From: a virus
UHGV virus genome: UHGV-2031204
Direction: 5' to 3' (one strand)
DNA length: 64,000 nt
The position numbers and the translations under genes were made by a program. Under the pieces are notes generated by a model. It was not told where the DNA came from. It made no database searches and saw nothing but the letters and a program-made list of their open reading frames with translations. Position 1 is the stretch's first letter. Every line of letters starts with the position of its first letter. Below are positions 5 through 58,852 of this stretch, one piece after another.

Positions 5-523
5 GTGATGTCTGGAGAAACGCCAGAGTTTATCCTGGAAAGTATCTGCCGTTACGTATACGGTGATGACAATATCCATTTTGAAGATTTGGTCATTCGT
101 GTTTCACCCCGTGTAATGACGGTGATGCGCAACTATCTTTCAGCTATGGTTGTGGATGAACAGCTTGCTGTAGGTAACGATGCGCGTCTGACGCGTATTG
201 CAGAATACTTGCGTCTTTATCCGCAAAACCCTTCTGCGTTCGTATTCCTAAACCTACCTGAAGATCCCGATTTGACGGTTGTCCAACAATCGTTAGTGTT
301 TGACGTCGAAGATTACAGCGAAACAGAATTACTCGAGATGTATACGGTAGGGCTTTCGATTATCGATAACGATGACTTCGATGACGCGTATGCCGATCTT
401 TCGACGAACTTAGAGAAACTTAATAATGATGGGTTACAACCCATTACTGTTTTACAACCTGCATTAAAAAGCCTACGGCTGATTTATCAGGTTGAGGAGG
501 CAGAGCACGATGACGAGGTTTGA
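5..523 (+). CDS. hypothetical protein (possibly 5-prime truncated at window edge)
   Basis: ORF open from window start (GTG 5 / ATG 8); overlaps next gene by 14 nt; no motif recognised. Confidence 0.45.
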   Translation: MMSGETPEFILESICRYVYGDDNIHFEDLVIRVSPRVMTVMRNYLSAMVVDEQLAVGNDARLTRIAEYLRLYPQNPSAFVFLNLPEDPDLTVVQQSLVFDVEDYSETELLEMYTVGLSIIDNDDFDDAYADLSTNLEKLNNDGLQPITVLQPALKSLRLIYQVEEAEHDDEV

Positions 524-1811
524 GTTCTTAGTAGCGGCATGTAAAGCAGAGGCATGGCGACGTCTGGTCTGGCGCATTGCTATTTTTAACATGTCGGTAT
601 TTCCAACAGGGCGCGAAGAACCCGAAGCGTTTGATATAACGTATATCGACGGCTTACCGCATTATTACGCTGTAGAAGACGGCAAGGGCAGTTGGGAACC
701 GATTACTGACGGCGTAAAGGACCAGGAGCTGTTTGTCCCTGAAGAACAGTTCGAGCTACGCCCTGACGATTATCCCGGTTTAGACGGTCCTATTCCCACG
801 ACAGTAGGACGATACGTTTTTAACTGGATTGTTATCTGGTATGCATTTGGTACACGCTTACCCTATCTGGCGATTTCACAAAACCCGTTGGAATATCGCA
901 AAGAGATGCATCGGCGTTGTTTAGACCATGAAACCGATGAGCCAGAAAACGAAGGTGCAATTCGACCGAGTATGATTGAGCGCTTTGTAAGCGGTTTACA
1001 CGAACTCGCGCCACTTACGTCAGGGATTGCACCAACCGGTACGTTACGAAGTCTCACAGTGCATCCTGATGCGTATAAAATCCGCGATGCGTTACTGTTG
1101 AAGCACAAAGACGAGTTAGACGATCCTGCCGTTATCGTTAAGATTGAAAAAGCGTTGGATGAGTTAGACAAAGAATGGTTGTCGGGTGACCAATCTATTG
1201 AGTTTTATAACTCGCCGAAATCGCGGATGCGTCGACGTAAATTAATGCTGATGTACGGTATCGAATCGTCTTTTCAGGAAGGGGGTCATTACACGCTCAT
1301 TCCGAACGCGTTAGTTGAAGTTGATAAGGCGGGGATGGAAAACCTGGTTGCGAAATTCAACTCTATCCGTGAAGGTTCATTCTCTCGTGGTGCGGAAACA
1401 GCGAAAGGGGGTGAGCAGGTACGTATTATCCAGATGATTTTCCAGAACCACCGAATCGTCCCTGGTGACTGCGGAACGAAACTAACGTACCCGGTTGTGA
1501 TTACCGAAGATAACGTAAAACGTTACGTTGGGATGAATGCGATGGTTAATGGTAAACTGACACCATTGACTGAGGAATATTTAAAACAACAGTTAGGTAA
1601 GGTGGTGCGGTTACGCCGACCCATCTTATGTCAGTATGGCCACATCGACACCTGCACAGCGTGTTCGTCTGCGAATAAAGGGGAAGAACCTCGCGCAATC
1701 GCTGCGGATATATCCTCGGCGTTCTCTAACGTTATGTCCGTGGCAATGGCCGCGATGCATGGTAAAGAGACAGTGGTACACGAATTTAATCCATCGATCC
1801 ACATTACGTAA
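510..1811 (+). CDS. hypothetical protein
   Basis: ATG 510 preceded by AGGAGG at 495-500; 433 aa; function not recognisable by eye. Confidence 0.55.
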   Translation: MTRFEFLVAACKAEAWRRLVWRIAIFNMSVFPTGREEPEAFDITYIDGLPHYYAVEDGKGSWEPITDGVKDQELFVPEEQFELRPDDYPGLDGPIPTTVGRYVFNWIVIWYAFGTRLPYLAISQNPLEYRKEMHRRCLDHETDEPENEGAIRPSMIERFVSGLHELAPLTSGIAPTGTLRSLTVHPDAYKIRDALLLKHKDELDDPAVIVKIEKALDELDKEWLSGDQSIEFYNSPKSRMRRRKLMLMYGIESSFQEGGHYTLIPNALVEVDKAGMENLVAKFNSIREGSFSRGAETAKGGEQVRIIQMIFQNHRIVPGDCGTKLTYPVVITEDNVKRYVGMNAMVNGKLTPLTEEYLKQQLGKVVRLRRPILCQYGHIDTCTACSSANKGEEPRAIAADISSAFSNVMSVAMAAMHGKETVVHEFNPSIHIT

Positions 1812-16064: not shown

Positions 16065-17330
16065 ATGGCGAATTTCTACAAAAACAAAATTGCTCGTGAG
16101 TCTATGGAGTCTACTTCTACTGTAGTTCCAGACGGCATCGAACTGCCAGCAGAATCCGTAGAAGGCACTCTGGCCGATATCGAGCATGACACCAAACCGA
16201 TCGAAGCTCTGGACGCTGACGCTGAACTGCTGGCAGAAGACGGCGACGAAACTGACGCTCAGCTGGATGTTCTGGATGAAGCTCAGGCTGCTGCTGACGG
16301 TGAAGGTGCAGGCGAAGACGGTGAAGAACCGATGGATGCCGAAGAAGATATGCCGGACGACGCTGCGACTGCGCTGGACGTTGCTCAGGAATCTATCCGT
16401 TCTCGTTGGAACTTCGAACACCGTTCTTCTGTTGCACACGAATCCTACGGTTCTCGTAACCGTCGTCAGGTTGCTCGTGAATCCCTGTGGGAAGACATCA
16501 AAGCCTTCCTGGGCCGTATTCTCGATTGGCTGAAAGAACAAGGCCGCAAACTGAAAGATCGCTGGCTGAAATTCCACAACCAGGGTAAATCTATTCAGGC
16601 ACGTGCTAAGAAATACGATGAAGTTATTCGTAAGCTTGGCAAACAGAAGAAAGATGAGATCTCTGGTGGCTTTATCAAGTCTCTGTCTATCGACGGCAAG
16701 TTCGTCGGTGATAATATTCCGAAACTGAAAGGTATCCTTAACCAGGTCTCCTCGTTCTATAGCGCTAAGATGCCTGCCATGGCCGCTAAAGCTGCTGAAG
16801 TGGTTTCCGATGTTACCAAAGGTAATGGCGTTAAAGTTGAAAAACTGAAAGCCGACTTTACCGAACTGTCCAAACAAGACAGTCTCCAAAACTTCAAGCT
16901 CGGTAACATGGCGGTGAAAACCGAGTATGACAACGAAGGCGGCTTCAGCTCCACCTTTGTTGAAGCTGAAAACAGCGTTGAAACTAGCGTGAAAACTCCG
17001 TCTGTTGGCGAACTGGCCAAAATCAATGCTCTCTTCAACGAAGTGGGTAAACAGATTGAGAAGAACGTTCAGGATTATCGTAAAGTCGAAAGCGCGCGGA
17101 AAACCTTTGAAGATAATATCGATAAGCTCCTGAAAGAAGTCGATAAAGTTAAGATCGACGAAAAACCGGAACTGACCGAAGGTGTACGTGCTGCCCGTCG
17201 TTTCATCACCAGCGTTAACCAGGGTCTGTCTCTGGGTGAGAAGGTTATTGCTTCTACTCAGAAACACCTGGCCGGTGGTCTGAACGGTTACCTGAGTGCC
17301 GGTATCGGCGCTTACGAAAAATCTAAATAA
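16065..17330 (+). CDS. abundant acidic protein, paralog B (candidate virion inner-body or scaffold-like protein)
   Basis: Paralog of 14711-15982 with same codon bias and conserved blocks; followed by strong terminator. Confidence 0.6.
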   Translation: MANFYKNKIARESMESTSTVVPDGIELPAESVEGTLADIEHDTKPIEALDADAELLAEDGDETDAQLDVLDEAQAAADGEGAGEDGEEPMDAEEDMPDDAATALDVAQESIRSRWNFEHRSSVAHESYGSRNRRQVARESLWEDIKAFLGRILDWLKEQGRKLKDRWLKFHNQGKSIQARAKKYDEVIRKLGKQKKDEISGGFIKSLSIDGKFVGDNIPKLKGILNQVSSFYSAKMPAMAAKAAEVVSDVTKGNGVKVEKLKADFTELSKQDSLQNFKLGNMAVKTEYDNEGGFSSTFVEAENSVETSVKTPSVGELAKINALFNEVGKQIEKNVQDYRKVESARKTFEDNIDKLLKEVDKVKIDEKPELTEGVRAARRFITSVNQGLSLGEKVIASTQKHLAGGLNGYLSAGIGAYEKSK

Positions 17331-17347: not shown

Positions 17348-17394
17348 AGAGAACCACCCTGTAATGGGGTGGTTCTCTCTTTTCTTTTTTTTTC
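17348..17394 (+). terminator. rho-independent terminator
   Basis: 12 bp stem AGAGAACCACCC/GGGTGGTTCTCT then 16 nt T-rich run. Confidence 0.75.
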
Positions 17395-17409
17395 GATTAA
17401 AATAATTTT

Positions 17410-17448
17410 CAGATATATATTACCTAGGTGAGATTACACAGTAATCTC
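17410..17448 (+). promoter_or_regulatory. conserved promoter-like motif plus dyad (copy 1)
   Basis: CAGATATATATTACCTAGGTGAGA followed by palindrome GAGATTAC-ACA-GTAATCTC; immediately after terminator, before gene 17484. Confidence 0.5.
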
Positions 17449-17483
17449 TTTACGACTTGTTTATTACGTTTAGGAGAAATATC

Positions 17484-18125
17484 ATGAGCCGCATTAATTT
17501 AACTGATTTTGTTGATGGTGTTGTGTCTACGGATAAAGGTGTTGTTACGATGGTGGCACCGAATAGTAAAGTTGTTACTTTAAATCCGGTAGAACTGATT
17601 TCTATTTCTACCTGGTTGCGCTTACTTTCTGGTAAGAAACCTAAAGACCAAGCGAAGGGTGGCCTATTAGTTGGTACACGTGAGTTTGTTTTCAAAGACA
17701 TAACCCAAGATAAACTGGACAGCATTGCTAAAGAACTGAACGGCAAGCATAAAACTCGCGACATCGGGTGTGCCGAATATGACGGAGTAACGTACCATGC
17801 GTTTCTTGATAGTCACGTAGCATTGCGTGAAAAAGAAAATGGGATGTACGATTCAGTTTGTTTCTTTCACTTAATCGCACCAACAGAAAACGAAGCTGTG
17901 TATGAAACCGTTGAAAAATCGGCGGAAGCTGTTATGGAAACGGTGTCAGAACTTATAGAAGGGATGAAAAGAATCCCACGTGTGTTGAAAGTTACTGATG
18001 GGGCTTTCGATTGTTTTAAATTATTACCCCTAATAGCTAGTAAAGAATACGAAGATGAGAACACCTTCGGACTATTCGAAATTAGTCTTTCGGAAGCAGT
18101 TGTTACTTTCTTTGAAGATTTATGA
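17484..18125 (+). CDS. hypothetical protein (first gene after conserved promoter motif)
   Basis: ATG 17484 with AGGAGA RBS, downstream of motif at 17410-17448. Confidence 0.55.
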   Translation: MSRINLTDFVDGVVSTDKGVVTMVAPNSKVVTLNPVELISISTWLRLLSGKKPKDQAKGGLLVGTREFVFKDITQDKLDSIAKELNGKHKTRDIGCAEYDGVTYHAFLDSHVALREKENGMYDSVCFFHLIAPTENEAVYETVEKSAEAVMETVSELIEGMKRIPRVLKVTDGAFDCFKLLPLIASKEYEDENTFGLFEISLSEAVVTFFEDL

Positions 18126-18130
18126 GATAA

Positions 18131-18159
18131 AAAACCCTCTACGGAGGGTTTTATTTTTT
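18131..18159 (+). terminator. rho-independent terminator
   Basis: AAAACCCTC-TACG-GAGGGTTTT then TATTTTTT. Confidence 0.65.
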
Positions 18160-25500: not shown

Positions 25501-25506
25501 AAACTT

Positions 25507-25545
25507 CCCGTTACCTCTATGGGTAACGGGAATACCTTTTATTTA
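25507..25545 (+). terminator. probable rho-independent terminator
   Basis: CCCGTTACC/GGTAACGGG stem, interrupted T-rich tail. Confidence 0.5.
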
Positions 25546-25665
25546 TTCCTAAACGACACGCAGAAGTCATTTAACCGTTAAGACGACTAATTACCCTTTA
25601 AAAAGAAAATTGCGTCAGAATGCGTTTTAGAGCGTTCTAGAGGGTATATGGATTCAAAAAGATTT

Positions 25666-25704
25666 CAGATATATATTACCTAGGTGAGAGTTTACGTAAT
25701 ACTC
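25666..25704 (+). promoter_or_regulatory. conserved promoter-like motif plus dyad (copy 2)
   Basis: 24/24 identical core CAGATATATATTACCTAGGTGAGA, then near-palindrome GAGTTTACGTAATACTC; upstream of small membrane protein gene. Confidence 0.5.
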
Positions 25705-25735
25705 ATTTATCGAATACCTAATTAGGAGTTATATC

Positions 25736-25879
25736 ATGATTTCTGTAAAACACAAAAAAGCTATCTTCGCTGTTGTTATCGCTGTTGTTCTGGGTTGCCT
25801 GTATCTGGACATCGACAAAGGCTACGACACTTGCATCGACAACGGTAATTCCGTTGCACAGTGCACTGGTCGTGGTTAA
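25736..25879 (+). CDS. small single-pass membrane protein (47 aa), strongly codon-optimised
   Basis: AGGAG RBS, ATG 25736; hydrophobic helix AIFAVVIAVVLGCLYL; sits between conserved promoter motif and terminator; shares LYLD..K.Y motif with 62281-62478. Confidence 0.5.
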   Translation: MISVKHKKAIFAVVIAVVLGCLYLDIDKGYDTCIDNGNSVAQCTGRG

Positions 25880-25884
25880 TGTAT

Positions 25885-25917
25885 AAGGCACCTTCGGGTG
25901 CCCTTAATTTTTTTATT
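25885..25917 (+). terminator. rho-independent terminator
   Basis: GGCACC-TTCG-GGTGCC then TTAATTTTTTTATT. Confidence 0.7.
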
Positions 25918-26749: not shown

Positions 26750-26755
26750 AAGCAA

Positions 26756-26798
26756 CCCCTAATCCCGAAAAGGATTAGGGGTACACTTTATTTATTTT
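26756..26798 (+). terminator. rho-independent terminator
   Basis: CCCCTAATCC/GGATTAGGGG stem then T-rich run. Confidence 0.65.
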
Positions 26799-26800
26799 CG

Positions 26801-26890
26801 CAAATTCAACAACTTGGATTAAATAAAAGGCTTAAAGCCACTAACAATCATCGAGTACAGATCTTCACCGAAAGGAGAAGTAACTACTAA
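26801..26890 (+). pseudogene. degenerate remnant of small-protein module (no start codon)
   Basis: Translates to ...QLGLNKRLKATNNHRVQIFTERRSNY, similar to C-terminus of 27047-27220 product, but no in-frame ATG/GTG. Confidence 0.3.
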
Positions 26891-27046
26891 ATAAAATAAA
26901 GGGGTGTGACAGCACCCCTTATCAAAGCTTTAACTTTTCGAAAAGAGAAGTTAAAGCAGGGTACGCTGTAGCACCAGCGTACCCTTTACAGCACCACCAC
27001 GTTTCCGTAGTGGATTTCTTTAATCACCCTACAAAGAGGGCTTACC

Positions 27047-27220
27047 ATGAACAATGGTTACTACTTTACTGACAAAATGCTTGCAGAACAGAGTGCAGCA
27101 AAGACCAATTTACAGCAACGTATCTACAAGTATAGTCAGCTCGGCATGGATAAACGGTTAAAACCGTCTACCAACCGTTTCACGCAGATATTCACCGAAA
27201 AGAGGAGTGAACACTACTAA
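27047..27220 (+). CDS. small protein (57 aa), member of tandem paralog module
   Basis: AGAGGG RBS; C-terminus ...TNRFTQIFTEKRSEHY parallels remnant at 26801-26890; below ORF-track size cutoff. Confidence 0.4.
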   Translation: MNNGYYFTDKMLAEQSAAKTNLQQRIYKYSQLGMDKRLKPSTNRFTQIFTEKRSEHY

Positions 27221-27445
27221 CAAATAAAGAGGAGGCGTGTCAGCGCCTCCCCTCCTCGTACAGTAACCTGCCGAGATGGTGGTCGTAGGTATAATAAAAA
27301 GGGGTGCACCACCACCCCTTTTCTTAGCTTTAACTTTTCCGAAGAGAAGTTAAAGCAGTAGAGACTGTTCCATCAGTCTCTACTGTACGGTGACAACGCA
27401 TAAAGTTGTTGACGTTTTTACAACATTACAAAAGGTAATGAAAAA

Positions 27446-27607
27446 TGAACGAATATCAAATACAGATGTTCAATACCGCGATGCGAAATCGTGAAAAACA
27501 AATTCAGTTTAACCAACGCATGGACGAATATGTTCGTCTCGGCCTCGTTGCGGCACCGAAAACGGTTAACAATCACAATGTTCACCAACCACCTGTAAGG
27601 AGATAAG
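27446..27607 (+). CDS. small protein (53 aa), diverged member of tandem paralog module
   Basis: AAAGG RBS; shares (Q/R)LG(L/M)...TxNNH block with neighbours; followed by hairpin. Confidence 0.35.
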
Positions 27608-27749
27608 TTACTAACTAATAAAGGGGGTGGCAGCAACACCCCCTACTTAGTTCAGTAGTTGTTTCCCGTTCATAATTAATAGCCTTCTGTTTTTTTTTGT
27701 TTTTCGAGACGCATAAGGGGTCATAAGGGGGAGCCGAAGCTCCCCAGAC

Positions 27750-29312
27750 TCAAAAGAGTTCGTCACCCATGCCGCCGGTAAATACGTTAATCGACGAGGC
27801 TGTTACAGTTTCTTCTTTATCACAATCCCATGGCAAAATGCCAACATCACGGAAAGGTATTACAGTATAATGATAAGCTTCTTTGGTATCAATAATGGTA
27901 CGGTGTTTACCGCGTTGTACTTCTAAATAGCTGTGTCCGCTGACGACACGTTTGTTAAAATACATCTCACCGTCAGCTTCGTTGTCTAAGCTAGAGCAGT
28001 TGTCGTAAAGACCACGACCAGGTAAGCTCTTACAGAAACTTGCTGGGTCGAGTGCTTTTAATTTTTTGCCTTCTGGTGAGATTTGGTGTGGTGCTAAGAG
28101 GAAACCACGATTACGTACCACTTGGATGTTTCGCGCGATACGATAAATTTCTTTAATGTCACTACCCGCAATACCGTTACCGTGCCCTGCTTTGCTGATA
28201 GTACCGAAATAGTCTCCGCGTATTCCAGCTACATGATAACCTCGACGTTTTAGATCTAAAATCAAATCATTCAAATAGTGAATTTTAAAATCGGAGTTTG
28301 TGTGTTTTTGGAAAATATACTCCCAACCGTTTGCCCGCATTTTACTACAGAGGTAATCTGACATTTGTGCATTGTGTAGCGCTTTTTCTTCGTCAGTTGC
28401 CGTTTCAGGTGCAACCATTACCGGAGCTGTACCTTCAAAGTGTCCGTAAAGTGCTTGATACGCGTAAGCCAAGTTAACATCTAATTCGTTTTCTAAACTT
28501 AAATCCAGAATAACCGGTTGTAAGTCACCTTTAACATTTGCCATCACCTTTTCTGGGGTGTTGAATACAGGAATGCTAATAGAGAGCAATAAACTGAATA
28601 ATGACTTACAGTTAAAGGGTAGTGCGGGCATTAGCCAGAGTTCTTCGGTGATCCCTTTGTTACAGCCAAGCATTTGGTTAATTGCTTTCCACCCCGTACG
28701 TAACCCATTACCTGCCGCTTTCTTACTGATAGAGTCGAATACATGTACGAAGGGTGCTTTATTGTCAGTAATCAATTCCCCTACCAGAGAAGGAATCTTA
28801 TTATGAGAGCGTTCACTGAACGTGGATAAGGTATCCTTAAGGTCGTTGAGCGCCGTTTGTAAATCAACACGCGTTTCAGTGCCGTTCAGTGCGCCTAACG
28901 TACGACCCAATTTTTGTTTCAGTTGTACGCCTTGAATAGCTTGACGTAACTGAAAGTAGTATTGTGCTACTTGGCGATTAAGATGCTCGATGCGTGCTTC
29001 TGGTTCTTCTGGAATATCATCTTCCAGGAATTTGGTAATCGTATCGTATAGAGGACGTATTTGCGTAGTGGCCAGTTTCAAACGTTTCATGACGTTTGTG
29101 TGGTCGTAAGGCATACCGCCGTCTATGATGGATGTGATGATATCCTTGATTTCGACGAGGGCGGCACGTTCGTCACCTTCTTCTGCGTAATCAGGAAGCT
29201 TAGCCTCTAACAGCACTTTTCTTATGATGTCGTGGTCCTTTTCAGGATCGGTCAGAAGACTTTCAGCGTATAATGTGGCTAAGGCGGTTATCAACATCAT
29301 TTTGTTATTCAT
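27750..29312 (-). CDS. hypothetical protein (520 aa) with hydrophobic N-terminus
   Basis: Long minus-strand ORF; N-terminal MNNKMMLITALATLYA; divergent from 29326 gene with 13 bp spacing. Confidence 0.55.
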   Translation of the reverse strand: MNNKMMLITALATLYAESLLTDPEKDHDIIRKVLLEAKLPDYAEEGDERAALVEIKDIITSIIDGGMPYDHTNVMKRLKLATTQIRPLYDTITKFLEDDIPEEPEARIEHLNRQVAQYYFQLRQAIQGVQLKQKLGRTLGALNGTETRVDLQTALNDLKDTLSTFSERSHNKIPSLVGELITDNKAPFVHVFDSISKKAAGNGLRTGWKAINQMLGCNKGITEELWLMPALPFNCKSLFSLLLSISIPVFNTPEKVMANVKGDLQPVILDLSLENELDVNLAYAYQALYGHFEGTAPVMVAPETATDEEKALHNAQMSDYLCSKMRANGWEYIFQKHTNSDFKIHYLNDLILDLKRRGYHVAGIRGDYFGTISKAGHGNGIAGSDIKEIYRIARNIQVVRNRGFLLAPHQISPEGKKLKALDPASFCKSLPGRGLYDNCSSLDNEADGEMYFNKRVVSGHSYLEVQRGKHRTIIDTKEAYHYTVIPFRDVGILPWDCDKEETVTASSINVFTGGMGDELF

Positions 29313-32172: not shown

Positions 32173-32215
32173 GTCTAAGCCCTTCGGGGCTTAGACCTTT
32201 TATTTTTTTTTCTTT
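32173..32215 (+). terminator. rho-independent terminator after candidate capsid gene
   Basis: GTCTAAGCCC-TTCG-GGGCTTAGAC then long T-run. Confidence 0.75.
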
Positions 32216-32227
32216 CTATTATTTTTT

Positions 32228-32250
32228 GGATAGATATTATTAAAGGGAGA
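32228..32250 (+). promoter_or_regulatory. possible diverged copy of promoter-like motif
   Basis: GATAGATATTATTAAAGGGAGA after terminator 32173-32215. Confidence 0.3.
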
Positions 32251-32339
32251 CGGCCAGTTGGTTTTAAAGGAGTATGTATGGAAAAAATACAGTTTAAACT
32301 AAAGATATGTGTCATCATTAAAATTTAGCTTGGGTTCCC

Positions 32340-33350
32340 ATGAAACGTCTTGATATTGATGTGGTGCCCAGTATCTCTGAACGCTCGTTATGTCAAACGT
32401 CTGGATTGAGGAAACTTGTTACGTTTGAAAATAACACTGGCGTGCCTATCCACGTCACTGAAACCAGTGGCGGTAGCTTTATTTTAAATGCTTCGAAAAA
32501 CCCCGCTGATGAGCATGGGGTTATCGTTTACGTGACGTATCAATCATACGGAAGATGCGCGAATCTCAATGGGTTTGCTGAACTGATGCCGGGAAAACAG
32601 TTTTCTCGCTTTTGCGACCAATTGAAAGAAAAAGGGGAGGTAACGTTAGAGTATGCAGTAAACGACGTTGGTGCGTTGCTGCGAGGAGATTTGGTTGTAC
32701 TAAAGCAGTTAGGCTTTGCTTTCTCAACAACACCGATACGCTTAGATAGTAAACCCCCAACTATGCGCCCTGGAGGTGAGCGCACTGAATTTACATTGGG
32801 TGTTGTTGTTGTGCAACGCTACGACGAGCCCGACAATTATCGGTGGCTACGTTTCTACGGTACGAAAATGAAAATCGAACCAATAACGTCACGCTATTAT
32901 GAACCGGGCGTTTACATGATAATAGGAGGTGGAACGAGGGTGGAAGGGAGTCGAATGATTCATTTTGAATTTGACGACATTACTTCACCGTTTAGATTAT
33001 TTAAGGATGAGGCAGCGGCGGACGCGTTTCGATGGCAAGAAGCAGTTCCCGGTCTCTTTGAGATTAAGCAGCGTTTAGAAGAGCAGTACAAAGAAAAATT
33101 AGAAAGCTTGGATTCGGCAAAAGACAAGTTAGAATTGGAACACAAGAAACAACTACAGAGCATGGCTTTAGAAAAGGAGCGATTGACTTTAGCATTCAAG
33201 CAACAGGAATTGGAAGCGAAGTCACGGGCTGAGGCGCGTAAAGAATTCTACGAGACGCGTTCTTACATTCGTAAGGACGGCTCAGACCTATTTAAATCTG
33301 TCCCTGCGTATTTGGCGGCGGGTGTCGCATTTATAGGGATGCTAACGTAA
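32340..33350 (+). CDS. hypothetical protein with coiled-coil region and C-terminal hydrophobic segment
   Basis: E/K/L-rich heptad-like stretch near residues 240-300; C-terminal VPAYLAAGVAFIGML; weak RBS. Confidence 0.5.
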   Translation: MKRLDIDVVPSISERSLCQTSGLRKLVTFENNTGVPIHVTETSGGSFILNASKNPADEHGVIVYVTYQSYGRCANLNGFAELMPGKQFSRFCDQLKEKGEVTLEYAVNDVGALLRGDLVVLKQLGFAFSTTPIRLDSKPPTMRPGGERTEFTLGVVVVQRYDEPDNYRWLRFYGTKMKIEPITSRYYEPGVYMIIGGGTRVEGSRMIHFEFDDITSPFRLFKDEAAADAFRWQEAVPGLFEIKQRLEEQYKEKLESLDSAKDKLELEHKKQLQSMALEKERLTLAFKQQELEAKSRAEARKEFYETRSYIRKDGSDLFKSVPAYLAAGVAFIGMLT

Positions 33351-33360
33351 GGAGCATGGC

Positions 33361-35136
33361 GTGTTTAAAGATGCAATCAAAAAGCTTAAAGAGAATGGTA
33401 AAATAGTACCCTTTAACCGTGCGATTGCGGAAGGAGTCGGTTATACACAAGCCAAAGATGGTATTCACGATCGTGTACATCGTATCTTGAAACGTGAGCT
33501 AGATTACCATCCTGTAGAGAACCCTCGTGTTCCTGAAGGTTTGGCCGTGTTGGGTGTTCGTTTAATGTCGCCGTTCGAAACTTTTATCTATAAGCTGTCT
33601 CGTTCAGAGAGCAGCAGGATGGATAAGCGTCGTGGGGTGATGTCAATCGCGAATACAGATGCGTATATGGTCATGTCGTCGTTCCGTATTCCTGGAGACT
33701 CAAGACCAATCTCAAGACCGATTAACTTGCCATTCATTCGTCGTGGTGGGTTGATGAACTATTACGGAACAACGTATCATGTTGCACCTGTTATTCATCA
33801 GCCGGGTATCTGTCGTGAGCACGGCGGGGTGTTTGTTAATTTTGACTTTAAACGTAAAGCGTCATTAAAATTCTGTAAGCACCCGGTACGGATTTTAGTG
33901 AATGGGAAGAAAGAAGAGTTGTTCTTACCCGGAACAAACAATTTGTTTAAAGCCAAAAACGCCACACATCCTGATACGGACGAAAAGCCGTTAATGTACT
34001 GGCTATTCGGACGTTATGGATTTAAGGAAGCCATCAAACGTTATACCGGCGTGGATGTAGAGATATATCCTGCATTCAAAGTACCTGAAATCGATCTCGA
34101 TAAAAAAGTAGTAATCAGTTCAGGTGAGCCTAAACATAATCGGTCGATTATGTACGTAGTGACGGTTCCTGCAGAGGCTTTACCAAATCTCGATAAAGCG
34201 GGATGGGATCAAAACGAGCACTTATTACTCGTGGCGATTTCTGCATTCTTTAAAGCAGCGCACTATTATTGCGGAAAGCAAGCGATTAAAAACGGCAACG
34301 TTGTTCCTTTACCGCCGTTGTTTACCGCGATTAACGAACTTGCAATGGAGGACGATGTTGTAAACCTGAATTCCTCCGCAATTTGGCGGGAGATTTTGGG
34401 GAGAAGTATTGTTGGACTTAAACCGTCCGATATTGAACTGGCGCACAGCATGACGAAACACTATACGGAGTGTGAACGCTACGTTAACTCAACATTCCGT
34501 GGTGAGTTAATGATGTCAGATCCCGATATCCCGGACGATATGGATATGTTTGATTTCTTCTGGTACGCGACGAAGTTGATGGTGAGAACGCGCCTTACGA
34601 AACAAGGTGATATTCCGTCAATGTATGGAAAACGTCTGACCGTAACAGATTACCTGTTATTGGGTGAACGTGGCTTTACACCTACCATCGCTGCGATTCG
34701 TTTCCACTTGGGACAAACGGAAAATCGAACACCGGAGTCTTGTGCGAACATGATACGCAGTGCGTTGAATAAAGACATTGTAACCAGCCTGGTATTACGC
34801 AACATTACCGGCAATGGCGGTGTAAGTTATTTCAACGCTTCTACTGAGTCTATGGTGCTGGGGGTTTCAACCCATGCTATCAGCCAGACAGAAACAGAAT
34901 CAAAACGTAACAGCAAGGGCGGTAAGACGGTTAACCTTAATGACCGGACAAAACATGCCTCTGCATCTCATCTGGAATGTGGTAACGTGTATTACATTCC
35001 GAAGTCATCACCGTTCAAATCGGGTATTCTCAATCCGTATATGAAGACGAACACCCAACTGGTGATGGTACGTAATCCAAAACTCAACGAGTTGATCCAA
35101 GCAACCGAAGAAGACATTGCGAAGATTGGCCGTTAA
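33361..35136 (+). CDS. hypothetical protein
   Basis: 591 aa ORF, GTG start with AGGAG RBS. Confidence 0.5.
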   Translation: MFKDAIKKLKENGKIVPFNRAIAEGVGYTQAKDGIHDRVHRILKRELDYHPVENPRVPEGLAVLGVRLMSPFETFIYKLSRSESSRMDKRRGVMSIANTDAYMVMSSFRIPGDSRPISRPINLPFIRRGGLMNYYGTTYHVAPVIHQPGICREHGGVFVNFDFKRKASLKFCKHPVRILVNGKKEELFLPGTNNLFKAKNATHPDTDEKPLMYWLFGRYGFKEAIKRYTGVDVEIYPAFKVPEIDLDKKVVISSGEPKHNRSIMYVVTVPAEALPNLDKAGWDQNEHLLLVAISAFFKAAHYYCGKQAIKNGNVVPLPPLFTAINELAMEDDVVNLNSSAIWREILGRSIVGLKPSDIELAHSMTKHYTECERYVNSTFRGELMMSDPDIPDDMDMFDFFWYATKLMVRTRLTKQGDIPSMYGKRLTVTDYLLLGERGFTPTIAAIRFHLGQTENRTPESCANMIRSALNKDIVTSLVLRNITGNGGVSYFNASTESMVLGVSTHAISQTETESKRNSKGGKTVNLNDRTKHASASHLECGNVYYIPKSSPFKSGILNPYMKTNTQLVMVRNPKLNELIQATEEDIAKIGR

Positions 35137-51718: not shown

Positions 51719-51756
51719 CCCCTACTTAACGGTAGGGGCGGGTTTCTTTTTTTACC
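51719..51756 (+). terminator. rho-independent terminator
   Basis: CCCCTAC/GTAGGGG stem then GGGTTTCTTTTTTT. Confidence 0.65.
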
Positions 51757-51769
51757 CTAAATTTTATTA

Positions 51770-51816
51770 CAGATTGATATTATCAATGTGACAACCGTAG
51801 TGAGTCGGTAACTCAC
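51770..51816 (+). promoter_or_regulatory. possible regulatory region with two palindromes
   Basis: TTGATATTATCAA palindrome and GTGAGTCGGTAACTCAC dyad after terminator, before gene 51842. Confidence 0.3.
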
Positions 51817-51841: not shown

Positions 51842-52456
51842 ATGGAAATTAAGCGCTTTGAACTCCCTAACAACTACACTTTAGTTGAAGTTGCTGAAAA
51901 TGAAATTGGCGAAAATAGAAAGAATGCGGGCTTTGTCTCGAAAAATTCGCTTTTGATTTATGAAGGTGAGAAATTAAAGTATACCGTCGGTCATCTCTTC
52001 ACTGAAAATGGAAAACTCTGGGAATCGCAGTACGAAAGACTGTTGTCGAAATTCCGTTCCCAATTATTGCTGAGATACCTTCGCGATGAGGAAGACTATA
52101 AACTCTTTGTAACAAAAGAACAACTATTGGCTGATAAATATCCCGCTTATACTGCATGTTTAGCAGCTCTTAAATTGGTCGGCGGTTATGAGGAGTTCGT
52201 GGCGGGCAGTAGCAATTTTGCTATCTCACGACACAGAGATCGCGTCATCATCAAAGATTTTGAGGTGACCCATATACGTACTGTCACGCTCAGCCTCAAG
52301 CATCCTGAAAAGGTGAGTATCGATGACCGGTACGTCATTGCAAACAAGGCCATTTCTTTTACAGCGAAATACCATACCGTCGGTTACCCTACGAGTAAGG
52401 AAGTGTACGAAGAACGTAACCTTGAGAGCTTAATTTCCACATATTTTGAATTGTAA
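51842..52456 (+). CDS. hypothetical protein
   Basis: 204 aa, AGAGAG RBS; preceded by two palindromes (51770-51816). Confidence 0.55.
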   Translation: MEIKRFELPNNYTLVEVAENEIGENRKNAGFVSKNSLLIYEGEKLKYTVGHLFTENGKLWESQYERLLSKFRSQLLLRYLRDEEDYKLFVTKEQLLADKYPAYTACLAALKLVGGYEEFVAGSSNFAISRHRDRVIIKDFEVTHIRTVTLSLKHPEKVSIDDRYVIANKAISFTAKYHTVGYPTSKEVYEERNLESLISTYFEL

Positions 52457-53142: not shown

Positions 53143-53148
53143 CCGCTT

Positions 53149-53187
53149 AGGTACCACCCAACGGTGGTACCTATATTTTATTTTTTC
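53149..53187 (+). terminator. rho-independent terminator
   Basis: AGGTACCACC/GGTGGTACCT stem then T-run. Confidence 0.7.
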
Positions 53188-53188
53188 T

Positions 53189-53226
53189 CAGATATATTTT
53201 ACTTAGGTGAGAGTTATGATTAACTC
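53189..53226 (+). promoter_or_regulatory. conserved promoter-like motif plus dyad (copy 3)
   Basis: CAGATATATTTTACTTAGGTGAGA then GAGTTATGATTAACTC; between terminator and HTH gene. Confidence 0.5.
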
Positions 53227-53262
53227 TTTACACCGACTTGTTAACCTAAAGGAGTATTTACA

Positions 53263-53622
53263 ATGGCTTACAATCACAATTCCATCGTTCTGGCAAAACG
53301 TAAATTCGGTCTTCACTTGTCTTACGTAATTCGTCATTTGACCACAAAAGACATTACCCAGCGTGAACTTGCCCAGCTTGCGAAAGTTTCACAACCTGTT
53401 ATCTCGTCTATTAAGAACGATCACTCAGAACGTTTAAGTTTACCGATTATGATGAAAGTTGCTGATGCGATTCGTCTGAAATACCAGATTAGTTTTAATT
53501 CCGTTAAGGGTCGTTGCTCAGTAACCGTTCACGTAGAGTCCGCGTTAGACTACGTTGCAAACACGTCCATTAAACGCACCACGAAGAATGTGCGTTTTAT
53601 CACTAACACCGCAACACACTAA
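53263..53622 (+). CDS. XRE-family helix-turn-helix DNA-binding protein
   Basis: ITQRELAQLAKVSQPVISSIKN matches the HTH_XRE pattern; first gene after motif and dyad at 53189-53226. Confidence 0.55.
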   Translation: MAYNHNSIVLAKRKFGLHLSYVIRHLTTKDITQRELAQLAKVSQPVISSIKNDHSERLSLPIMMKVADAIRLKYQISFNSVKGRCSVTVHVESALDYVANTSIKRTTKNVRFITNTATH

Positions 53623-53643
53623 TCAACCTTAAGGAGTATTATC

Positions 53644-54315
53644 ATGCCACCGAAAATTGGTAAAACTGTAATTGAAGAAACTGTAAAGAACGAGACTAAA
53701 GCCAATGAAGTTCAACATGCTGCGAAGGTTGAACTTTTACCCTGCGTTAATGAAATACTCGGGGTGAAATTCTTAACTTTTAGCCCGCATACTGACCTGG
53801 TTTTCGATCTTTATCAAGACCAGCCTTTCAACCTATTCACACTTGTCTGTACTTATAATGGCGATGTTCTGGCAGTTGCTCCTGCTCTTAATAGAGACAA
53901 GTTACTTACAGGTACGGTTATTACTGAAATTCTTCTGCGGTTAATGCATAAGTTTGAAGGGCCTGAACTTGACAAAATCGCTGTTAAGTTAGCTGACCTA
54001 CTAGTCAATGCTGCCGTCTGGTTGAGTTTTAACCCTTCTATCTATTTCCATTTCAATACAAATATTCTTCACGCCGTAACAGACGATGGTAAAAAGTATC
54101 GCATCTTAATTAAGGGTGGGGTGCAACAACCTTTGTTCTCTAGACAAAACTGCCATATTAAGTTTTCGCCTGACTTGGTAGAAGTTTACGGCCAGCGAGT
54201 AGCGGATGGCCACTACGAGGTCCATCTCAGATTTTTCAATTACCTGTATGAAAAATTAGGGAAAGCTGGCTTGACACCCAATCTTGCTTTCACAAGTTCT
54301 GCCCCTTTTGCGTGA
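53644..54315 (+). CDS. hypothetical protein
   Basis: 223 aa, AAGGAG RBS; terminator follows. Confidence 0.55.
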   Translation: MPPKIGKTVIEETVKNETKANEVQHAAKVELLPCVNEILGVKFLTFSPHTDLVFDLYQDQPFNLFTLVCTYNGDVLAVAPALNRDKLLTGTVITEILLRLMHKFEGPELDKIAVKLADLLVNAAVWLSFNPSIYFHFNTNILHAVTDDGKKYRILIKGGVQQPLFSRQNCHIKFSPDLVEVYGQRVADGHYEVHLRFFNYLYEKLGKAGLTPNLAFTSSAPFA

Positions 54316-54327
54316 TGTTTAATAATT

Positions 54328-54362
54328 GGGGAACTTCGGTTCCCCTTTCTTTTTTTGTTTTT
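54328..54362 (+). terminator. rho-independent terminator
   Basis: GGGGAAC-TTCG-GTTCCCC then T-run. Confidence 0.75.
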
Positions 54363-57765: not shown

Positions 57766-57802
57766 CCCTCTCTCCGTTTGGAGAGAGGGAGTATTTATTT
57801 TT
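57766..57802 (+). terminator. rho-independent terminator
   Basis: CCCTCTCTCC-GTTT-GGAGAGAGGG then T-rich run; identical stem at 58813-58836. Confidence 0.7.
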
Positions 57803-58462: not shown

Positions 58463-58480
58463 TGACAGTCTAAAAAACTT

Positions 58481-58512
58481 AAGATATATTTCATCTATGT
58501 GAGAATTCTCAC
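58481..58512 (+). promoter_or_regulatory. conserved promoter-like motif plus dyad (copy 4, diverged)
   Basis: AAGATATATTTCATCTATGTGAGA overlapping perfect palindrome GTGAGAATTCTCAC; upstream of gene 58536. Confidence 0.45.
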
Positions 58513-58535
58513 TTAACTAAATGGAGTAATCTAAA

Positions 58536-58805
58536 ATGGCTAAGATTTACATTGTTGAGAAACGTGCGGCTAATGTTCTTTCTTATTACGAAGAAGGTAA
58601 GCCTGAGAAAATCAAAACACTCAAACTCGACGGGTATGATGTGAAGAGTTTACGTAAGGGTGTGAAGATTACCTTTAAAGGTCTGACTCGCGTAAGTAAC
58701 TTACACATTGTTAAAGCCGATGGTACGATGGTTGCGTTAGCACCTGTCAGTGCTGCGAAAACGACAGCAGGTCGTGGCTGCTACGGTAGCAGTCGTAAGA
58801 TTTAA
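58536..58805 (+). CDS. hypothetical protein
   Basis: 89 aa with GGAG RBS, between promoter-like motif (58481-58512) and terminator. Confidence 0.55.
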   Translation: MAKIYIVEKRAANVLSYYEEGKPEKIKTLKLDGYDVKSLRKGVKITFKGLTRVSNLHIVKADGTMVALAPVSAAKTTAGRGCYGSSRKI

Positions 58806-58812
58806 GCAGTGC

Positions 58813-58852
58813 CCCTCTCTCCGTTTGGAGAGAGGGTACTTTTATTTTTATT
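58813..58852 (+). terminator. rho-independent terminator
   Basis: Identical hairpin CCCTCTCTCC-GTTT-GGAGAGAGGG then T-run. Confidence 0.7.

Follow-up and report, generated by a model that had tools for sequence, protein, structure and literature searches.

A probable phiKZ-type early promoter with a covarying hairpin at its predicted transcript 5′ end in SPN3US/Asesino-like jumbo phages

INTRODUCTION

The early promoters of the jumbo phage phiKZ are reportedly read, according to work of Ceyssens and colleagues from 2014, by an injected multisubunit virion RNA polymerase (vRNAP). These promoters were refined by differential RNA sequencing (PMC8244752) and by ONT-cappable-seq (PMC10914365); phiKZ early genes are transcribed independently of the host RNA polymerase (PMC7598289), and infection is unaffected by rifampicin. 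For the phage AR9 the early consensus is AAATATATATTAT-(6N)-G+1, and the early transcripts of phiKZ and phiR1-37 begin 6 nt past the element (PMC5312081). A review states that such a motif lies upstream of presumed early operons in every jumbo phage encoding RNA polymerases, and that it is the early promoter wherever transcripts were profiled (PMC7598289). Here we analyse a repeated AT-rich element in a 64,000-nt stretch of the virus genome UHGV-2031204 (the window, to which all coordinates given without a phage name refer). An initial annotation had described it as a promoter-like motif followed by variable dyads at 17410, 25666 and 53189, in diverged form at 58481, and with weaker relatives at 32228 and 51770. 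We propose that the motif is probably, as judged by homology, the SPN3US/Asesino-clade version of the phiKZ-type early promoter, and we describe a hairpin whose arms covary at the predicted transcript start.

RESULTS

The element is repeated, co-oriented and intergenic

By sequence identity and synteny, the window is that of a phiKZ-related jumbo phage of the SPN3US/Asesino type. Over conserved genes, its DNA shows ∼75% identity to Erwinia phage Asesino and to SPN3US-like phages of Salmonella. Synteny with SPN3US extends from ∼39 to 103 kb, and the window also encodes internal head proteins, a major head protein and a DnaB-like helicase.

A search of the window with the pattern CAGATATATWTTACYTAGGTGAGA, allowing up to 3 mismatches, gave three matches, at 17410, 25666 and 53189, all on the + strand; 100 shuffles gave none (chance expectation 0). 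The copies at 17410 and 25666 are fully identical over 24 nt. Both strands of the window were also scanned with a weight matrix (class A) built from independent copies in related genomes and spanning -15 to +24 around the motif. The six best scores (Table 1) fall exactly on the six sites of the initial annotation, all on the + strand, which bears out the repetition it had reported. For comparison, the null per-64-kb maximum over both strands has a mean of -2.2 (sd 3.4) and a largest value of 4.3; the sites at 51771 and 32228 are only marginal under this matrix. All six lie entirely within the part of the window free of open reading frames (ORFs), which amounts to 6.9%. Each is co-oriented with its downstream gene and, as had been claimed, this gene carries a Shine-Dalgarno sequence in all six cases.

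Every copy had also been placed just after a terminator. This holds for 17410, 53189, 32228 and 51770 and only loosely for 25666, where a terminator-like hairpin (25505–25532) lies 134 nt upstream; it fails for 58481, whose nearest preceding + strand terminator is at 57766–57789. The proposed conservation beyond a -10 element is clear: an invariant block covers about -20 to +4, and an ATTAAAAAwAATTTC block directly 5′ of the motif extends conservation another 15 nt upstream.

Table 1. Promoter-like elements, hairpins, genes and transcription units in the window. Starts are predicted; scores are those of the class A matrix, with the position of the scored site in brackets.
Feature	Position	Strand	Score (bits)	Details
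Split RNA polymerase subunit gene	492..1811	+		phrog_2962 "RNA polymerase beta subunit", E 3.4e-169
Internal head protein gene	16065–17330	+		phrog_2497
Terminator	17348..17378	+		14-bp stem then T-run; ends internal-head-protein gene, directly upstream of copy 1
Class A copy 1	17396..17433	+	60.7 (17411)	ATTAAAATAATTTTCAGATATATATTACCTAGGTGAGA; core TATATTAC at 17416–17423; predicted start G17430
Hairpin of copy 1	17430..17448	+		DNA GAGATTAC-aca-GTAATCTC, RNA GAGAUUAC-aca-GUAAUCUC; -8.2 kcal/mol, z -4.19, 0/200 shuffles as stable
Gene behind copy 1	17484..18125	+		213 aa, without PHROG match
Unit of copy 1	17430 to 18131–18152	+		predicted start to closing terminator
Class A copy 2	25652..25689	+	62.0 (25667)	core TATATTAC at 25672; predicted start G25686; weak hairpin 25688–25704
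Gene behind copy 2	25736..25879	+		47 aa
Unit of copy 2	25686 to 25887–25902	+		predicted start to closing terminator
Class B variant	32228..32250	+	4.8 (32228)	GGATAGATATTATTAAAGGGAGA; after major-capsid-gene terminator 32173–32196; ahead of 32340–33350 and 33361–35136
Non-virion RNA polymerase βN gene	33361–35136	+		phrog_2943; SPN3US counterpart gp77
Class B variant	51771..51816	+	7.7 (51771)	AGATTGATATTATCAATGTGACA; terminator 51719–51738 upstream; ahead of gene 51842–52456
Terminator	53148–53173	+		just upstream of copy 3
Class A copy 3	53175..53212	+	51.9 (53190)	core TATTTTAC at 53189; predicted start G53209
Hairpin of copy 3	53209..53228	+		DNA GAGAGTTA-tgat-TAACTCTT, RNA GAGAGUUA-ugau-UAACUCUU; -7.5 kcal/mol, z -4.07
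Helix-turn-helix DNA-binding protein gene behind copy 3	53263..53622	+		phrog_7126, E 1.3e-31
Continuation of copy 3 unit	53644–54315	+		
Unit of copy 3	53209 to 54328–54345	+		predicted start to closing terminator
Diverged intermediate copy with hairpin	58467..58512	+	25.9 (58482)	AAGATATATTTCATCTATGTGAGA; predicted start G58501 or G58499
Hairpin of diverged copy	58499–58512	+		GTGAG-aatt-CTCAC (GUGAG-aauu-CUCAC); -5.9 kcal/mol, z -1.9; moderate
Unit of diverged copy	58501 to 58813–58836	+		predicted start to closing terminator

The element is conserved in related jumbo phages

The exact 23-mer was found in 12 viral contigs (31 stretches in all), of which 11 are 107–246 kb long and one is a 7-kb fragment. 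With blastn, the 38-nt element matched 286 places in 69 of 50,697 phage records. These 69 are all jumbo phages of 224–250 kb, from Salmonella, Erwinia, Escherichia, Cronobacter and Proteus, together with one Vibrio phage, and in nearly all listed records no annotated feature lies under the match.

In the whole SPN3US genome, where 0.1 would be expected, 17 sites score above 3 bits with the class A matrix, and 16 lie on the + strand. Seven copies carry the full consensus (4427, 56294, 65413, 94239, 113986, 165687 and 223277), each of them on the + strand and intergenic by RefSeq annotation, which was used at 113986 in place of a mechanical ORF calling that marked this site as coding. The genes behind them include gp5, gp55, gp66, the helix-turn-helix (HTH) gene gp101 and gp135, and none is annotated as a virion protein; one unit includes DHFR.

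Each of the six sites in the window is matched in SPN3US by one at the same map position. The genes behind these positionally kept sites have diverged or show no similarity at all. The 213-aa protein behind copy 1 is 30% identical to gp55 over 88 aa only, the product of 25736..25879 is 53% identical to the 47-aa gp66, likewise behind a class A copy, and the product of 58536–58805, downstream of 58481, is 44% identical to gp112, which is preceded by a class B site (see below). The counterpart of the HTH gene at 53263..53622 is gp101, also behind a class A copy. Since the genes have diverged and the element is near-invariant, the element is under much stronger constraint than the genes it precedes, as one expects of a polymerase recognition site common to many units.

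At SPN3US 165687–165763, and in the same way in one further related locus, a GC-rich terminator (GGCTACCTTCGGGTAGCC and a T-run) stands within ∼50 nt downstream of the full class A promoter and its hairpin. Early transcription from this site could yield a short non-coding RNA in front of the next gene.

Relation to the phiKZ and AR9 early promoters

A phiKZ consensus was derived from three 50-kb stretches (150 kb) of NC_004629. In these, the + strand carries 21 copies of TATATTAC and the - strand 4, and 17 of the + copies share the flank tATTcAAA...aTTTAAaa..TATATTAC-N5-T-G. These 17 lie upstream of genes that include PHIKZ005, 006, 031, 036 and 054. The phiKZ early-promoter core, which the initial annotation had cited, is thus borne out on phiKZ DNA by strand bias and shared flanks. 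Anchored on the core, the consensus reads.t..t.tT.TATT.AAA...aTTTAAaa..TATATTACaAAt.TGaaat. for phiKZ and ......tt..ATTaaAAAtaaTtTCAGATATATATTACcTAGGTGAGAgT for the window. Over the columns outside the core, their similarity is 0.475 in register, against 0.26–0.37 at all other shifts.

The likeness concerns architecture as well as the core. The element has the extended AT-rich form of phiKZ-type early promoters, with a TATATTAC-like core near -10 and conserved -20/-30 regions, and in both phages the ATT-AAA box and the T-run stand in the same register, with T-1 and G+1 six bases past the core. The invariant T-G at the expected start position is compatible with a purine start 6 nt past the element; our start positions combine this published rule with the phiKZ alignment and are predicted only. 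In both, the copies are intergenic, numerous in the genome, co-oriented with small non-structural genes and often behind a terminator, and both phages encode split vRNAP and non-virion RNA polymerase (nvRNAP) subunits.

There are also clear differences. The -6 to +4 block TAGGTGAGA is invariant in the window clade and variable in phiKZ. A stem at +1 is present in 2/21 phiKZ sites (mean z -0.54), compared with 25/36 class A sites, and leaders measure 31–40 nt in phiKZ against a class A median of 52.5 nt. phiKZ has 28–32 early promoters, SPN3US seven strong copies. Finally, the phiKZ early promoter is experimentally established, whereas that of the window clade is known from sequence alone.

The Bacillus phage AR9 has a near-identical core (ATATATATTAT in AR9, ATATATATTAC in the window) and the same 6-nt spacing to a G start; it differs in its uracil-containing DNA, its Gram-positive host and the lack of a phage nucleus. 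The AR9 3′ end (TTAT) is better matched by the class B variant GATATTAT than by class A.

A search for split multisubunit RNA polymerase genes had been suggested as a check on a phage-specific promoter, and the window contains two such ORFs (492–1811 and 33361–35136). The first is the positional counterpart of SPN3US gp42, the 431-aa middle fragment of vRNAP β′. SPN3US gp42 was found in virions by mass spectrometry and is lost, with other vRNAP subunits, in a gp241 amber mutant. The polymerase to which 492..1811 would belong is the enzyme that we propose reads the motif. Searches of the window against Rfam 15 at the gathering score and with a tRNA scan gave no Rfam match and no tRNA.

The in-register consensus, the split polymerase genes and the phiKZ-related genome, all sequence-level tests, support the phage-specific, phiKZ-early-type promoter that had been suggested. 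That the motif is a promoter for a phage polymerase appears very likely, and by analogy with phiKZ its use early in infection by the vRNAP is fairly probable.

A covarying hairpin at the predicted 5′ end

The variable dyads are present, strong at 17430–17448 and 53209–53228 and moderate at 58499–58512 (Table 1), that of 25686 being weak. The dyad takes its 5′ arm from the motif itself, whose 3′ end is the conserved GAGA, and the partner arm varies to match it. In 25 of the 36 distinct class A sites, a perfect stem of 6 bp or longer is anchored at predicted +1 to +3; when positions +5 to +40 were shuffled (500 runs) the mean was 2.6 and the maximum 7, and other anchor offsets gave 0–8. The folding-energy z of +1 to +30 averages -2.34 over these sites. 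They carry 24 different stems, with loops of 3–9 nt. Compensatory variants in which the 'invariant' arm itself is changed are also found: GATAGA/TCTATC and, in SPN3US, GAGCGTTA/TAACGCTT. Most stems begin at predicted +1, some at +3, and the one at 58499 at -2.

The MAFFT alignment of the 36 leaders is gapless and thus puts hairpins with different loop lengths out of register. The leaders were therefore realigned to a covariance model built from nine in-register sequences. Standard pairs then fill 90.3% of cells (76.4% in shuffles), 5/8 pairs are changed on both sides (3.0 in shuffles) and the covariation score is 0.267 (0.111 in shuffles), values reached in none of 500 shuffles; these counts lean towards structure, as the alignment was fitted to it, and come from phylogenetically non-independent sites, two points that weigh against our interpretation. 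Sliding the 3′ partner by 1–3 columns lowers the covariation score to 0.06 or less. G·U pairs outnumber A·C mismatches by 43 to 12, an excess that points to a structure of the sense strand, hence of the transcript, and not a symmetric protein site on duplex DNA.

Operators and 5′ RNA stem-loops had both been offered as explanations for the dyads. The covarying arms and the G·U bias favour RNA stem-loops at the 5′ end over operators, and formation of the hairpin in RNA seems likely to us. The operator reading was rejected because the arms covary.

Class A leaders span 46–65 nt from +1 to ATG (median 52.5), and the modules have a constant order: the element of ∼40 bp, the covarying hairpin, an AU-rich leader, a Shine-Dalgarno sequence and a short unit closed by a terminator. 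Between the hairpin and the Shine-Dalgarno, 19/34 class A leaders contain a GAC(C/T)(A/T)T box, often as AATCGACTAT (17453–17459 and 53235–53241 in the window), at a similar distance from the start codon across leaders.

A second, hairpin-less subclass

The sites at 32228 and 51770 had been taken for weaker relatives of the motif. They instead belong to a distinct, separately conserved subclass (class B). A class B matrix was made from 11 seed sites, namely these two and nine weaker SPN3US matches, with a null maximum of 16.1 per 240 kb; 51770 scores 30.0 bits and 32228 29.8 bits, both being seed members. The matrix retrieved seven further, non-seed SPN3US sites, 7/7 on the + strand and mostly ORF-free and directly upstream of annotated genes, and on this ground the view that 32228 and 51770 are decayed copies was rejected.

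The class B core, AGATAGATATTATCT, is nearly palindromic. Only 2/18 class B sites have a stem of at least 6 bp at +1, with a mean z of -0.64. There is no +1 hairpin at 32228, and a site of the same type lies at the same SPN3US position (72485); the leader of 51771 has an internal hairpin (51800–51816, -6.5 kcal/mol, z -1.1). Where a start codon could be located, leaders are 22–43 nt long in 11 of 12 sites and 60 nt in the other. Class B is thus a second subclass of the same promoter family, hairpin-less and with shorter leaders.

Class B sites precede the RNA polymerase subunit genes gp22/23, gp34/35 and gp76/77 of SPN3US, the last at the position of window 32228. Class B may comprise weaker early promoters or a later class. 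The nvRNAP subunits of phiKZ are early products, which counts for early use. Two observations count against it: the AR9 vRNAP is very sensitive to single deviations from its consensus (PMC5312081), and in 201phi2-1 some nvRNAP genes lie behind middle or late promoters.

Downstream of 32228, a strong Shine-Dalgarno (AAAGGAG, within 32266–32328) and a 16-codon mini-ORF (32278–32328) precede the gene at 32340. The equivalent 330-nt gap after the SPN3US capsid gene holds two class B sites (72485 and 72684) and an ATG led by a ribosome-binding site. At two SPN3US places (15613/15633 and 191601/191621) class B also scores on the opposite strand, a consequence of the near-palindromic core, and a minus-strand gene diverges at both. 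These two sites could in principle be active in both directions.

Other features around the units

Upstream of copy 2, a block like AGAGCGTTTTAGAGGGTAT (25610–25650) is kept in six related loci; in the window it can pair as AGAAUGC...GCGUUCU and is not a canonical terminator. The protein encoded by 25736–25879 has a hydrophobic N-terminus (AVVLGC, lipobox-like) and a conserved C-terminus, CIDNGNSVAxCTGRG; SPN3US gp66, unlike this relative, is without the lipobox Cys. Further downstream, the ∼1 kb from 26750 to 27750 is devoid of long ORFs. It has two small + strand ORFs (27047–27220 and 27445–27606) and, on the minus strand, at least six strong terminator-like hairpins, near 26782, 26920, 26985, 27255, 27385 and 27644. 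The unit at 58481 is flanked by an identical 24-nt terminator hairpin, CCCTCTCTCCGTTTGGAGAGAGGG, at 57766–57789 and 58813–58836, 1 kb apart.

DISCUSSION

A model for early transcription in the SPN3US/Asesino clade

In the mechanism that we propose, a sigma-less multisubunit vRNAP would enter with the injected DNA and bind an element of ∼40 bp, composed of a ATTAAAAA box near -34, a T-run near -22, the core AGATATATATTAC near -10 and the invariant TAGGT-G(+1)AGA. Transcription would start immediately after DNA entry, at the G six bases past TATATTAC (17430, 25686 and 53209, and ∼58499–58501 at the diverged copy). Each copy, within its terminator-promoter-leader module, would drive a short unit of small, fast-evolving, non-virion genes up to the next intrinsic terminator. 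The first 18–22 transcribed bases would fold into the hairpin, with the conserved GAGA as 5′ arm. No single-stranded 5′ end would then be left, and early mRNAs would be shielded from the 5′-end-dependent decay of the host (RppH, RNase E). The early timing, the dependence on the vRNAP and the exact start are those that we infer by homology.

In E. coli, 5′-terminal stem-loops protect mRNAs from 5′-end-dependent decay by RppH and RNase E; the stabilising role of such stem-loops is said to have been worked out on ompA by Emory, Bouvet and Belasco in 1992. The class A leaders share with the ompA type a short hairpin with almost no unpaired 5′ nucleotides, an AU-rich leader, a Shine-Dalgarno sequence and Enterobacterales hosts. 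They differ in that the 5′ arm is at the same time a conserved promoter or initial transcribed sequence, in that the start is predicted, and in their stems, which are only 6–9 bp long and AU-rich. By this analogy, stabilisation of mRNA is the likeliest role of the hairpin, and one that we advance tentatively.

Less probably, the hairpin would be no generic stabiliser but a clade-specific component that nucleus-forming jumbo phages of enterobacteria require for expressing their early genes. In one version, it may tag vRNAP transcripts for exit from the vesicle of early infection, for ribosome loading or for shielding from RNA-targeting defences; in the other, it may form in the non-template DNA or the nascent RNA and help the sigma-less polymerase to escape from the promoter. 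If so, TAGGT-GAGA and the covarying 3′ arm would be one functional unit, and the hairpin-less class B sites would be mechanistically different, later promoters.

Several points weigh against an early vRNAP promoter coupled to a 5′-terminal stabilising hairpin. The hairpin at 25686 is weak (-2.7 kcal/mol, z -0.35). The hairpin stands at +1 only if the AR9/phiKZ spacing rule holds, and some stems begin at +3 or -2. RNase E and RppH are also present in Pseudomonas, so that mRNA stability leaves the absence of the hairpin in phiKZ unexplained. The nvRNAP subunit genes, expected to be early, have class B rather than class A sites in front of them. The 240 kb of SPN3US hold only 7 strong copies, compared with the 28–32 early promoters of phiKZ; this would mean either a small early set or early use of class B sites as well. 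Our literature search found no transcription-start, timing, rifampicin or in-vitro data for the SPN3US/Asesino clade, and the promoter class is assigned there by homology.

Alternative explanations

The motif might be a phage promoter that serves the nvRNAP, at middle or late times, in place of the injected vRNAP. In favour of this, structural genes abound in the window, an internal-head-protein gene precedes copy 1, and the promoter classes of 201phi2-1 sometimes depart from expectation. However, the genes behind the motif are small hypothetical ones, an HTH protein and, in SPN3US, the DHFR-containing unit, not virion proteins. The phiKZ middle (AAAATTACC, or TACT near -22) and late (TATG at the start) promoters do not resemble the motif, and middle and late promoters are weakly conserved and not findable by bioinformatics (PMC7598289), whereas this motif is strongly conserved and extended. 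We consider nvRNAP use improbable.

The dyads could otherwise act as DNA, either as operators through which a phage regulator, for example the HTH protein of copy 3, closes the early promoters, or as a DNA hairpin of the N4 kind. A dyad that overlaps the start site is where a repressor would block initiation, an HTH gene stands directly behind one copy in both the window and SPN3US, and the recognition mode of vRNAP promoters is still unexplained; moreover, the conservation of TAGGTGAGA exceeds that of the corresponding phiKZ positions, as it might if a second partner also bound there. A protein that reads sequence would not, however, tolerate arms that differ from site to site yet stay complementary (24 stems, double-sided changes in 5/8 pairs), and the range of loop lengths and the 43 to 12 excess of G·U pairs speak for sense-strand RNA. 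As for N4, its early promoters likewise associate an injected virion polymerase with a short inverted repeat that can form a hairpin. In N4 this hairpin precedes the start site and is recognised in DNA form by an unrelated single-subunit vRNAP of the T7 type. The N4 hallmarks of a fixed short loop upstream of the start and a one-strand DNA form were not found in the window-clade repeat, which runs from +1 to ∼+20 with loops of varying length and a wobble-pair bias towards RNA. We consider action of the dyads as DNA improbable.

A promoter-proximal attenuator or pause signal, in which the AU-rich stem and a UUUU run would stop or pause some transcripts, would account for the TTTT/TTTTA found directly after the 3′ arm in many copies; the SPN3US 165687 copy does have a real terminator within ∼50 nt, and antitermination has been proposed for related phages. 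Yet these AU-rich stems are weak (-3 to -8 kcal/mol), and the short U-run lies in part within the stem, quite unlike the phage's actual terminators, which are GC-rich with long T-runs, and a signal at +20 would act before full promoter clearance. We regard attenuation as improbable.

Reading by the host sigma-70 polymerase, with TATATT/TATTAC as -10 and the upstream A/T block as an UP-like element, is hardly credible: despite an AT-rich core that resembles a -10 box, an ATGACA-17-TATATT (10/12) overlapping the diverged copy at 58481, where the earlier statement that no -35 lies at 17 bp does not hold, and the reported rifampicin sensitivity of the phiKZ-related RSL2 and RSF1 (PMC5312081), it is rejected at 17410, 25666 and 53189, where that statement stands (no -35/-10 pair at 16–18 bp), sigma-70-like matches in these regions are below shuffles (21 vs 28.7 and 22 vs 32.2), the invariant block from ∼-20 to +4 reaches far beyond a -10 hexamer, and the same core and flanks occur at the early promoters of phiKZ, which is insensitive to rifampicin and independent of host polymerase for its early genes.

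Significance

This kind of promoter is already established, its presence in all phiKZ-related phages has been stated generally (PMC7598289), and nothing is overturned here. A full-text search for the motif string returned unrelated papers only. The motif described for the Erwinia phages Joad and RisingSun is a different element. In the literature searched we found no report of the +1-fused hairpin, of its absence from phiKZ, of the invariant -6 to +4 block, of the uniform ∼52-nt leader or of the hairpin-less AGATAGATATTATCT subclass; a logo for the clade may stand in Lavysh 2016, which reportedly predicted early motifs for all phages related to phiKZ.

The early genes of nucleus-forming jumbo phages serve take-over and anti-defence functions and are mostly of no known role. 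With a promoter model for the SPN3US/Asesino clade, the early gene set would become listable from sequence alone, in a clade of 69 sequenced phages (of Salmonella, Erwinia, E. coli, Cronobacter and Proteus), several of which are considered for biocontrol. Judging by the +1-coupled hairpin and by the second promoter subclass, early expression in this clade seems to have gained a further layer at the RNA level, a difference from phiKZ that can be tested.

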